Made by a program: the position numbers and the translations under genes. A stretch of 43,264 bases of DNA from a virus (taxonomy: Duplodnaviria > Caudoviricetes), in IMG/VR virus record IMGVR_UViG_3300020718_000020, positions 1 to 43,264 of that record. One strand, given 5' to 3'. Numbering within the stretch: the first letter of the stretch is position 1; every line of letters starts with the position of its first letter. Below the pieces are notes generated by a model. That model was not told the DNA's origin. It was given only the letters and a program-made list of their open reading frames with translations, and searched no databases. Shown here in pieces: positions 38,689 through 40,835 of this stretch.

Positions 38689-39885
38689 TTAAAAAAGTGT
38701 TGTTGAATAAATTAAGTTTCTATTTAATGTTTGAAGACCTACACATCCTAAAACTCGATTTAATGGATCGATAATTGATTTTTCAAATTGAGTTTCGTAA
38801 TCGATTGGAGGAGCAATTTCATAAGGATGATCTCCTGACAAATAACCGAACATGTCACTTAATTTATTATCACAATGATACAATTTAAGCTTCTCGCCAT
38901 TTGAAATCATACGATACTTTGATTTGTACTTTGGATTTGTATTCATCAAATAATTATAGAATCCTGCTGCTTTAACATTCGGAGGACATTTTAAACCATA
39001 TTGAAATTCGATATGATCGTCTACGATGTACTTTTCGATGTTATTGGTTCTTTTGTTAAAGGAAATATCATCAATATTCGTCATCTTGAACTCTTTCTTT
39101 ACCTTCTTTAAGAATGAAATAATGGTTGTAAGAGTTTCTGGAGTCGGTTTCTTTTCAAATAGAATATGCAAAGCTTCTGCTAATTTCTTTCTGGCAAACA
39201 TCGGTGTTGAAGATTGAATGGTATCAAACCCAACAGTTTTTATCTTCTTCAACATTTTATGTCTTTCCTTTGTGGTGATTTTATCATCCCATGCCAGGTT
39301 TTGAAGATACTTTTTCTTTGCCATCCAGATTCCAGAGTATGCAACTGATTCTAATTCAAATACCAAGAACGAATCTGTGTTTGTATTTTCTGCATACTTA
39401 TCTAATGCCTTTACAACATAATCTCTAATCCTAAGATCATAAATTGTAAGGATGAATGTTACAATGTCCATTTTTTCACCCAACCATTCAATAGATTCAT
39501 ACATTTCCTGAAACTGAACATAATTCGAATCGGTATCGATATAAATTACGGCAGGTTTTAAGATCTGTCTTTTGACTTTGATATTTAATTGTTTGTGGAT
39601 TGCAGCATCTTTTATAAAGAATTCCTGGAAATACTTATTTAAGATCTTCTCAGAATACAAGATCGCATTTTGCCCTTGCAGAGTTATCGATTCTGCGATA
39701 TCGATATTAAAGAAGTGAAACCACTTGTTACCAAAGGCTCCATAGATAGAGTTAAGCGTTACTTTAACGGCTTGCTCGTAAGCTGTGAATTTGGCAGATT
39801 CATTTGTATAGTATTCTGCCAAATTCTTAAGCTCATCGAGTGTTAACTCTTCTTCAGTTTTATTTAAAAGTTCTTCTATTATCAT
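38689..39885 (-). CDS. Family B DNA polymerase, C-terminal subunit only (gp43B-like)
   Basis: Motif B Q.AVKVTLNSIYG, motif C YIDTDS, KKKY and thumb region are present. The exonuclease domain and motif A are absent. Confidence 0.9.
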   Translation of the reverse strand: MIIEELLNKTEEELTLDELKNLAEYYTNESAKFTAYEQAVKVTLNSIYGAFGNKWFHFFNIDIAESITLQGQNAILYSEKILNKYFQEFFIKDAAIHKQLNIKVKRQILKPAVIYIDTDSNYVQFQEMYESIEWLGEKMDIVTFILTIYDLRIRDYVVKALDKYAENTNTDSFLVFELESVAYSGIWMAKKKYLQNLAWDDKITTKERHKMLKKIKTVGFDTIQSSTPMFARKKLAEALHILFEKKPTPETLTTIISFLKKVKKEFKMTNIDDISFNKRTNNIEKYIVDDHIEFQYGLKCPPNVKAAGFYNYLMNTNPKYKSKYRMISNGEKLKLYHCDNKLSDMFGYLSGDHPYEIAPPIDYETQFEKSIIDPLNRVLGCVGLQTLNRNLIYSTTLF

Positions 39886-40631
39886 TAATCAGACGATTGA
39901 CAAGTTGCAATTGTTAATAAAGTGTTCGAATCTTTTGAGCGTAAAACGACTCTGTTTGAGAATACGTTTGCTGCATAGTCTTCTTTATCGAAAAGATTCA
40001 AATACTTTTTATAAACAGTCACATTTGATTTCGCTGCTTGTGTTGTATTAATTAACTTATTGTAAGATTTACCTTTAACTCGTACACCTTCTTTAGATGA
40101 AGAGATTGAGAATGTTTCATCTTTGTCCAAGCCAAATAATGATTTGATCTTAGAAACATCAGTGTAAGTCATATCGAATTGAACGTCTGCTCCATCGATA
40201 TTAAAGATGTTTGATAACTGTGATTCGGTCAAGTCTTTGTAACCTAAGCTTGGTTCAGAACAAGACATTGTGATCTCTAATTCATCATTGAAGATCTTAA
40301 ATGTAGATGCCACAAAATCTTCATCATTCTCGATGAATTCAATTTCTGCTTGGATTGATTCAAATTCAAATTGACGGAACGCATCGATCAATTTAGATGC
40401 ATCAAAGAATGCTACTTTAAGCTCTTTGGTTGTAGCGATTGGATTTTCAATTACAAATACCTCGGATAGAGGGAATTGAAGGTGCTTTACTGCATCTCGC
40501 TGTGGCAAATACGCCGAAGAGATGATACTGTCATTTTTGATTTTGAAGTAGATAAAAGAATCAATAACTTTCAGGCGGTTAACAAATGCCACGAAATTGT
40601 TTTGATCTACTTTTGAGATTGTTACTTTCAT
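39885..40631 (-). CDS. Probable sliding clamp (gp45-like)
   Basis: 248-aa acidic alpha/beta protein translationally coupled to the polymerase subunit. Size and context fit, but no diagnostic motif was seen. Confidence 0.6.
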   Translation of the reverse strand: MKVTISKVDQNNFVAFVNRLKVIDSFIYFKIKNDSIISSAYLPQRDAVKHLQFPLSEVFVIENPIATTKELKVAFFDASKLIDAFRQFEFESIQAEIEFIENDEDFVASTFKIFNDELEITMSCSEPSLGYKDLTESQLSNIFNIDGADVQFDMTYTDVSKIKSLFGLDKDETFSISSSKEGVRVKGKSYNKLINTTQAAKSNVTVYKKYLNLFDKEDYAANVFSNRVVLRSKDSNTLLTIATCQSSD

Positions 40632-40657: not shown

Positions 40658-40686
40658 ATTCTATCCTAAAATTGGAAAATGTTTCA
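40658..40686 (-). promoter_or_regulatory. Promoter TGAAACA-N16-TAGAAT upstream of the clamp/polymerase operon
   Basis: Recurrent motif with fixed spacing. Confidence 0.6.
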
Positions 40687-40689
40687 CAT

Positions 40690-40717
40690 AAAAAAAGGGA
40701 TCCAATTGGATTCCTTT
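40690..40717 (-). terminator. Rho-independent terminator
   Basis: AAAGGAATCC-AATT-GGATCCCTTTTTTT on the minus strand. Confidence 0.75.
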
Positions 40718-40740: not shown

Positions 40741-40835
40741 AAAAATAAAAATAGGGCTAGAGTAGCGAATTCTAGCCCTGGTCGGCCATATAACTATAAC
40801 CGGTCCTAAGTGAGGTCTTCAAACCTCGACTATTT
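40741..40835 (-). ncRNA. Structured nrdA 3' UTR element antisense to 23S rRNA H69-H70, ending in a terminator hairpin
   Basis: The plus strand contains CGGCC-ata-TAACTATAAC-c-GGTCCTAAG and GTAGCGAA, matching 23S rRNA CGGCCGTAACTATAACGGTCCTAAGGTAGCGAA. Three hairpins form on the minus strand. Confidence 0.7.

Follow-up and report, generated by a model that had tools for sequence, protein, structure and literature searches.

A family of structured phage RNAs complementary to the helix 69-70 region of bacterial 23S rRNA

Introduction

The antisense RNAs of plasmids ColE1 and R1, RNA I and CopA, show their complementary bases in hairpin loops. Loop-presented antisense bases are also described for the c4 RNA of phages P1 and P7 in the accessible text of a review of phage small RNAs (PMC12197685). 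The phage element reported here resembles these three in carrying complementary bases in hairpin loops, an arrangement suited to kissing before duplex growth. However, RNA I, CopA and c4 target their own mRNA or primer RNA, whereas the element is complementary to host 23S rRNA, with its blocks of complementarity in permuted order. Small RNAs derived from the 3' UTRs of bacteria and phages begin at or after a stop codon, end in the terminator of the operon, carry a conserved seed and pair with mRNAs or other small RNAs. The element shares with them the stop-adjacent start and the conserved seed; it differs from them in the kind of RNA that it complements. The first of its two types (type A) ends in a terminator-like hairpin and a U-tract, a predicted terminator, and its second type (type B) ends in a pseudoknot.

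The calicivirus TURBS and the 3' cap-independent translation enhancers of plant viruses are eukaryotic and cis-acting, and the pairing shown for them is with small-subunit rRNA. They, too, are viral RNAs located close to a stop codon or within a 3' UTR, and they bind ribosomal subunits or pair with them, as we propose for the element; unlike them, the element is found in phages of bacteria, complements 23S rRNA and, in type A, has no coupled downstream ORF. The H69-H70 site of 23S rRNA is used by recycling factors and antibiotics. Translation can be blocked by a synthetic PNA directed at H69 (Kulik 2017, cited in the accessible text of PMC12828698). That antisense agent is man-made and contiguous, and the element would be its natural, structured counterpart if the pairing is true. 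Large phages act on host ribosomes, as proposed for the element, through the ribosome-binding protein bS21 (PMC9723584) and through the phiKZ factors (PMC10914614), according to the accessible text of both papers. These are proteins, whereas the element is an RNA, and the 43-kb contig on which it was found gave no match to bS21 in a profile search (PF01165).

To our knowledge, no natural RNA of bacteria or phages has been described that base-pairs with large-subunit rRNA as its target. A search of full-text literature, mostly outside subscription papers, returned no description of such an RNA and no relevant paper linking the GOLLD RNA to 23S rRNA; the accessible text of a phage small RNA review (PMC12197685), a jumbo phage review (PMC13282480) and PMC9723584 does not mention one either. 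Fremin et al. 2023 reported 8,495 unnamed candidate RNAs from IMG/VR (PMC10690425, accessible text). The motif is absent from three supplementary files of that study and may be among its unannotated candidates.

Here, we describe what is apparently an uncatalogued and widespread family of phage RNAs, defined by complementarity to 23S H69-H70. If the pairing is true, abundant aquatic phages would control host ribosomes by RNA as well as by proteins, and the family would form a new class of viral RNAs, one directed at the large ribosomal subunit itself. Because the target is identical in E. coli and most bacteria checked, the pairing claim is testable in a laboratory strain. In addition, these natural scaffolds illustrate ways in which a folded rRNA helix could be invaded.

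The phage and its probable host

The window, by which we mean the whole stretch of 43,264 nucleotides analysed, is a fragment of a large T4-like phage and is 15% complete according to CheckV. It encodes terminase, portal, Gp23 capsid, sheath, helicase, RecA-like protein, DNA polymerase and the ribonucleotide reductase subunits nrdA and nrdB, the latter two likely being co-transcribed (Table 1). Sites resembling the promoter-like site ahead of the 248-aa gene recur in relatives. A group I intron (57 bits, above the Rfam gathering score) lies at 1110-1300 on the minus strand, between ORFs 1386-2111 and 1-894. The family B DNA polymerase ORF (38689-39885, minus strand) is only 398 aa long and aligns with the C-terminal portion of longer profiles, which suggests that the DNA polymerase of the window is split.

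Among 30 long IMG/VR records examined, 14 have a capsid protein 63-81% identical to that of the window, and bS21 is encoded by 8 of these 14. The best match of the bS21 of one relative was PDB 7JIL, an entry named in PMC9723584 as the F. johnsoniae ribosome. Chen et al. 2022 predicted Bacteroidetes hosts for large lake phages with bS21 (PMC9723584, accessible text) and report relatives that are transcriptionally active. From the bS21 genes of the capsid relatives, the 7JIL match and these predictions, we infer that the host of the window phage belongs to the Bacteroidota. Carriers of type B are far from the window clade, with capsids 30-33% identical where found, and for the bS21 of one of them 7JIL ranked last of 32 matches. 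Their hosts therefore likely differ from those of the window clade. In one type B carrier (record G004, L664 283-1704), a ClpX-like ATPase, as read from the sequence, is located directly upstream of bS21.

Table 1 Features of the nrdA-downstream region of the window
Feature	Position	Strand	Basis
nrdB, small subunit, cut by contig end	42680..43264	-	ORF search
nrdA, ribonucleotide reductase large subunit, 606 aa	40836..42656	-	ORF and Pfam RNR large subunit
Whole type A element: P1 hairpin, block 1, P2 hairpin, P3 terminator-like hairpin, U-tract	40741..40835	-	Covariance model R1 and predicted fold
P1 hairpin, variable and optional in family	40812..40827	-	Predicted fold, family alignments
Block 1, complement of 23S 1920-1929 (H69 3' strand and following loop)	40801..40810	-	Exact match to E. 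coli 23S
P2 hairpin, mirror of H69, contains block 3	40783..40802	-	Predicted fold, alignments
Block 3, complement of 23S 1911-1920 including H69 loop	40800-40791	-	Exact match to E. coli 23S
P3 hairpin, 9 bp, block 2 in loop	40753..40779	-	Predicted fold, alignments
Block 2, complement of 23S 1930-1937	40769-40762	-	Exact match to E. coli 23S
U-tract; with P3, predicted intrinsic terminator	40741..40751	-	Sequence; a scanner with a loop limit of 8 nt did not list P3
Second terminator-like hairpin, outside the RNA, downstream	40694..40717	.	Terminator scan
Promoter-like site for 248-aa gene, 9/12 matches	40658..40687	-	Promoter scan; sites no commoner than in shuffles
248-aa gene downstream of element	39885..40631	-	ORF without Pfam or PHROG match

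The element and its rRNA complement

An earlier note, made from the letters of the window, had drawn attention to a structured RNA directly after the nrdA stop codon and antisense to H69-H70. The sequence reads as quoted there, on the minus strand, with block 1 beginning 26 nt past the nrdA stop. Compared with E. coli rrlH 23S rRNA, the 95-nt element contains three exact antisense blocks that jointly cover 27 contiguous bases, 1911-1937. As claimed, the blocks are rearranged relative to the contiguous target: blocks 1 and 3 are consecutive with one extra base, and block 2, moved away from the 5' side, sits in the loop of the final, terminator-like hairpin. A contiguous run of 27 was reached in none of 30,000 dinucleotide shuffles (best 26), and the antisense run never exceeded 19 in the other 95-nt tiles of the window. 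A looser measure, which did not require contiguity, was equalled in 9 of 20,000 shuffles and in one further region of the window.

The minus strand of the element has a predicted fold of -33.1 kcal/mol (z -4.44). The earlier note saw block 1 as unpaired between two hairpins, but it is not wholly so: in the family, the middle hairpin has the 3' CCG of block 1 as its base (alignment A3, pairs 45-47), and in the predicted fold of the window the GG of block 1 pairs internally. Covariance model R1 gave 75 bits for the element as its sole strong match in the window, an identical copy (L121) having been in the training alignment. In the comparison with Rfam 15, the element of the window stayed below the gathering threshold (best 21 bits, 48 needed), and neither 20 member loci nor 12 further loci searched at E up to 0.5 reached that of any family. 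Neither collinear rRNA beyond the blocks nor a match to the LSU rRNA model was found for the element.

Conservation among relatives of the window

To collect relatives independently of the RNA, we used the 248-aa downstream protein as bait. This yielded 57 loci, 49 of which include the end of nrdA. The element was present in 48 of the 49 and was located 26-37 nt past the nrdA stop in 47. At L142, it lies 563 nt after the stop, behind an inserted gene; L172 (record G010), a close relative with nrdA, is without it. Two of the 49 loci (L121, L122) are identical to the window. The NrdA C-termini are of two types, 30-36% and 60-100% identical to that of the window. The former type, measured over the C-terminal 160 aa, occupies the same locus in 13 cases (L123-L126, L128-L130, L135-L137, L143, L171, L173), which suggests gene replacement of nrdA within the clade. 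Yet the element was retained at these 13 loci.

Among 37 distinct copies, per-column conservation was 95-100% in block 1, 86-100% in the P2 loop and 84-100% in block 2; the 5' strand of the terminator stem was 38-65% conserved. An A-to-G change in block 1 (2 of 37 copies) preserves a G.U pair with U1923, and the outermost base was lost from block 1 in one copy and from block 2 in six. Duplicated terminators without block 1 had a drifted block 2 in L148-L150, but not in L142. Upstream of homologs of the 248-aa gene, a second conserved intergenic element, consisting of a hairpin, a 9-nt core and a terminator, follows stop codons in L125, L126 and L128-L130 (near 3880 in full-length loci) and in L141 (1840 and 3886); a convincing rRNA complement was not found in it.

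A family of two structural types

Across IMG/VR, the two-block pattern occurs in about 1,400 stretches, as estimated from 6 of the 64 parts of the collection (at least 120 loci). The reversed block order gave 105 matches in the whole collection, in varied and mostly coding-looking contexts, and the permuted order is thus 13-fold commoner than its reverse. Block spacing peaks at 45-48 and 59-61 nt. When half of the pattern was searched, block 1 with the loop motif was accompanied by block 2 within one mismatch in 50 of 115 distinct matches; block 2 with the pseudoknot tail was accompanied by block 1 within one mismatch in 30 of 119, two of these being chance matches by eye. A filter for a hairpin around block 2 passed 89 of 108 two-block matches, 13 of 75 reversed controls and 36 of 120 genome matches. 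Because it was so poorly selective, membership was judged by covariance models and the full architecture. The pooled set comprises 148 members, or 84 representatives below 80% identity. Left out of these counts were L381, L022 and L219, in which the architecture is absent by eye, and the mis-anchored L136; L016 and L242 were typed B.

Type A, to which the window belongs (39 representatives), opens with an optional hairpin and block 1; next come a hairpin mirroring H69, a terminator-like hairpin whose loop carries block 2, and a U-tract. In type B (45 representatives), block 1 occupies the loop of a hairpin, and the hairpin that carries block 2 is nested within a pseudoknot, which takes the place of the terminator-like hairpin at the 3' end. 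Fifteen representatives (type B1) lack P2 and keep both blocks. The stems covary in both types: 168 double-change cells were counted in type A compared with 83 +/- 8 after shuffling, and 177 compared with 70 +/- 7 in type B, where the pseudoknot helix is 91% paired. Two more alignments (A3 and A4, fitted to models) gave 169 versus 72 and 374 versus 143, and none of 500 shuffles matched the count in any of the four alignments. The element is a conserved structured RNA with compensatory changes in its stems. The alignments bear out the expectation of the earlier note, covarying stems around invariant rRNA-complementary blocks.

The complement continues outside the search pattern: the base opposite C1920 is G in 60 of 68 representatives, and the base after block 2, opposite G1929, is C or U in 65 of 68. 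It ends before A1938, opposite which a match occurs in 0 of 68. CC precedes block 1 in all 35 type B copies, an ambiguous observation as internal loop pairing is possible. Indeed, the target stretch is self-complementary, so that both the P2 stem and this CC are explicable by internal pairing. Position 1915 of 23S rRNA is methylated. In the broad set, the P2-loop base facing it is A in 26 of 47, compared with 36 of 47 at 1916 and 41 of 47 at 1912. The idea that this base is free to vary is a weak one, since it is 97% A in the clade of the window.

BLAST of the element returned no match in E. coli genomes or cultured phages, and BLAST of a type B copy returned a chance match of 19 nt only. In prokaryote genomes, the two-block pattern had an estimated 2,700 or so matches with flat spacing. 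Both models, applied to 100 of at least 120 such loci, gave one match, L581. This locus is part of a Bacteroidota MAG, on a phage-like contig rich in tRNA genes. In cellular genomes, the element is thus rare, if present at all.

Variation of the target

The 23S target pattern was matched in 29 of 45 genomes searched, with a few of the matches due to chance. Its core, 1920-1937, is identical in Bacteroidota, Proteobacteria, Cyanobacteria, Bacillota and others checked. Differences were seen at 23S 1921-1922 in two actinobacterial genomes and went further in one archaeon (L693, an archaeal form of the target). A scan for the actinobacterial complement gave 103 viral matches, all attributable to chance except L740. 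This locus is on a contig with 68% GC that encodes the actinobacterial marker WhiB, and its variant block 1 matches actinobacterial 23S rRNA within the same architecture: block 1 is separated by 6 nt from the stop of an upstream 352-aa ORF, which appears endolysin-like from features read in its sequence, and block 2 is in the loop of a long, GC-rich hairpin. Protein similarity gave no host assignment for L740, the indication of its host being WhiB and the GC content. L740 is the compensatory change that pairing predicts, in a single case. A follow-up of the actinobacterial variant produced one possible member (L854) in 16 matches, and by eye no member among 95 distinct metagenome matches. In L854 (865-882, minus strand), an 18-nt actinobacterial-type antisense with a P2-like hairpin and a terminator directly follows a T4-like major capsid gene; despite the actinobacterial block variant, L854 has no sign of an actinobacterial host.

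Strand, neighbouring genes and copy number

The strand was assigned from the U-tract and from co-orientation with the upstream ORF. Fold energy over 141 nt did not separate the strands (z -2.68 for minus, -2.97 for plus). The earlier note had argued that U-G pairs favour the antisense strand as the folded one. This is clear only in type B, with G.U:A.C counts of 95:37 and 106:31, and weak in type A, with 65:58 and 58:46. A same-strand ORF of at least 50 codons ends between -40 and +13 nt from block 1 in 64 of 74 representatives, compared with 6 of 74 on the opposite strand; for ORFs of at least 22 codons, the figures are 72 of 74 and, for the opposite-strand control, 21 of 74. In type B, the median distance from stop to block 1 is 8.5 nt. 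From block 2 to the next start codon, the median is 81 nt.

The earlier note took the element for a selected feature rather than a captured rRNA fragment, and it named lack of homologs, free drift of the blocks and absence of an orientation bias as what would speak against this. Selection is supported on all these counts, by some 1,400 stretches, blocks conserved to 84-100% and an orientation bias of 64 versus 6 of 74, and further by the covarying stems and the excess of the permuted order.

The description of the element as an nrdA 3' UTR holds for the window and for part of the family. The 136 upstream ORFs fall into 57 blastp families, with nrdA contributing 33, and some copies stand alone. 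Among 67 upstream ORFs scanned were desaturase, ferritin-like, TctC, subtilase, deaminase, holin and tail tube genes, most of the 67 being without a family. The element is not nrdA-specific. In two arrangements, ribonucleotide reductase genes lie beside 17 of the 39 type A representatives, compared with 0 of 45 in type B, and a link to nucleotide supply is therefore not general. No gene appears to run into the element at L243 and L278 (by script) or at L107 and L114 (by eye). At L243, the gene upstream is divergent and the element has a promoter-like site of its own; the next gene is nrdB at L243 and L107. Late-promoter boxes were not enriched upstream of the element (7 of 84), and no constant neighbour or partner gene was found among the upstream genes of members.

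With both models, a single strong copy was detected in each of 29 long records out of 30, including all four of at least 90% completeness, and none in G010; because the records were drawn from loci already in hand, this counts copies per genome and not prevalence. Record G001 has, besides its strong copy, a second, degenerate type B copy (L688 1438-1521), in which the pseudoknot and most of block 2 are kept and most of block 1 is lost.

Two kinds of ORF recur beside the element. A conserved, acidic and proline-rich ORF of about 25 aa has its end 7-9 nt ahead of the type B element in several phages; in others it lies further upstream (L001, L238, L259; also L017, L031, L040; similar ends in L019, L099, L103). 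Fatty-acid desaturase-family ORFs end inside block 1 at L009, L085, L371 and L387 and run through it in L414.

Proposed mode of action

Conserved, exposed bases on different scaffolds are complementary to one contiguous, essential stretch of rRNA, and pairing with that stretch is the simplest explanation and a probable one. For the broader reading, that large phages of at least three host phyla carry a natural antisense RNA that pairs with the 23S H69-H70 bridge, uses several independent scaffolds and tracks the host rRNA, we estimate a probability of roughly 0.7. As to mechanism, we tentatively favour, at slightly worse than even odds, a trans-acting antisense RNA, mostly derived from 3' ends, that would pair with free or immature 50S subunits.

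The RNA would be made as the 3' end of the carrier transcript (nrdB-nrdA in the window), act in trans and pair with H69-H70 of free or not-yet-mature 50S, thereby blocking the joining of 30S. H69 is located at the subunit interface in 70S ribosomes, hence the choice of free or immature 50S as the partner. The first contact would be a kiss between the loops of P2 and H69, after which block 1 would invade the 3' strand of H69; the P3 loop would pair with the adjacent 1930-1937. With the antisense divided among separate loops, in pieces of about 8-12 nt, access to a doubly tethered strand would be easier. In a predicted co-fold, the element and a naked 46-nt rRNA fragment reached -63.7 kcal/mol, compared with -33.1 and -10.0 apart, a gain of about 20 kcal/mol. 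The accessible text of three studies describes H69 and H71 as unfolded in late 50S assembly intermediates (PMC9638911), helix/loop 70 as cleaved in free 50S by MazF-mt6 (PMC6101614), and H67-H71 as dynamic or rearranged in mycobacterial 50S, with an inactive, stored 50S pool (bioRxiv 10.1101/2022.08.30.505801). The gain for the phage is the least certain step: host ribosome production or turnover might be diverted to provide ribonucleotides for the reductase encoded beside many type A copies, given that a block of joining or maturation could convert host rRNA to nucleotides.

Action in trans is favoured by the single copy per genome, the unrelated carriers and the stand-alone copies. In addition, the element has a conserved, exposed seed complementary to its target, as trans base-pairing small RNAs do. 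Between the two roles suggested in the earlier note, a processed small RNA and a ribosome tether on phage mRNAs in general, the 57 upstream families, the single copy and the copies without an upstream gene likewise favour the former. Some considerations weigh against these readings. A phage needs host ribosomes, and wholesale blocking of 50S would be harmful unless it were limited in amount or aimed at immature particles. The tight proximity to stop codons and the 25-aa ORF would fit a cis role equally well, and the host-matched variant is a single case among 103 pattern matches.

Such a cis role, which we consider unlikely but the main competitor, would have the element pair with H69-H70 of the 50S subunit freed by termination just upstream and hold it, or pass it on, for recycling or re-initiation, much as TURBS do on the other subunit. 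It would account for the stop codons around block 1 in 72 of 74 representatives (64 for the longer ORFs), for the 14 of 74 type B members in which the best-scoring ORF ends in the UAG of block 1, some of these calls being doubtful, for the conserved small ORF 7-9 nt upstream of several type B copies, and for the L842 group, in which a contiguous 22-nt antisense lies 3 nt past a stop and just before the next ATG. However, a single copy per genome behind unrelated genes without a common need for high output is not what it predicts, nor are intact copies without an upstream gene (L243, L278, L107, L114) or a spacing of about -12 to +38 nt, and genome compaction by itself places 3'-derived RNAs beside stops. 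Moreover, the terminator-like hairpin of type A leaves no downstream gene for re-initiation. As in TURBS, an rRNA-complementary motif lies near the stop, but its target is 23S and not small-subunit rRNA, and a coupled downstream start on the same transcript was found only in the L842 group. Rather improbable, in our estimation, is that the partner of the blocks is another RNA, that they direct a phage enzyme to the 23S site or that they have some other role not yet guessed. Guide RNAs, among them the modification guides of the H/ACA and C/D types, have a two-arm layout, which the blocks recall. The arms, however, abut or overlap at 1929-1931 without a gap, no partner gene travels with the element, five long carrier genomes contain no contiguous antisense copy of the block junction, and in the window the 27-nt target has no copy in sense orientation, even with up to 3 mismatches allowed.

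Protection of H69-H70 in host 50S from a defence or toxin nuclease, or storage of subunits for later use by the phage, is highly improbable. The toxin cleavage of helix/loop 70 in free 50S and the stored mycobacterial pool with rearranged H67-H71, both cited above, agree with it, but block 2 ends at 1937 with no match opposite A1938, leaving the UUCCU site from 1939 uncovered, and invasion of H69 would itself disable joining. Slimmer still is the chance that P2 imitates H69 in shape and titrates an H69-reading factor, complementarity being a by-product of hairpin mirroring. P2 does mirror the H69 stem pair for pair, and sense-strand H69-H70 copies exist in other phage RNAs; yet the P2 loop is the complement and not a copy of the H69 loop, and the protein decoy considered in the earlier note is a weak proposal. 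In addition, block 2 has no hairpin to mirror, the 15 type B1 representatives keep both blocks without P2, and variants preserve pairing by wobble. A DNA feature, either the degenerate homing-endonuclease site of the earlier note or a captured rRNA fragment, is scarcely tenable. This rRNA stretch is the I-CeuI site, as the earlier note states, and some copies have up to 21 contiguous complementary bases (L216). However, the order is permuted and an extra base breaks the I-CeuI site, of which no match with up to 3 mismatches was found; the stems covary, pseudoknot included; orientation is fixed relative to transcription; and terminator duplicates that lack block 1 have let block 2 drift in L148-L150, though not in L142.

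Other copies of the H69-H70 stretch

Apart from the permuted family, contiguous and unpermuted antisense copies of 23S H69-H70, 17-23 nt long, lie 3-13 nt past a stop codon in L845/L837, L849/L836, L839, L841/L843 and L842/L847/L834/L835. A terminator-like hairpin comes next, except in the L842 group, where the next start codon follows at once. Copies in sense orientation (17-27 nt) were observed near tRNA or tmRNA genes of large phages (L825/L828, L826, L830, L832, L840, L848, L850, around 1001-1017). Some of these are right behind a weak tRNA-like match, and their Rfam matches are to tRNA and tmRNA families only. The sense copies may represent a separate family of rRNA-mimic RNAs.
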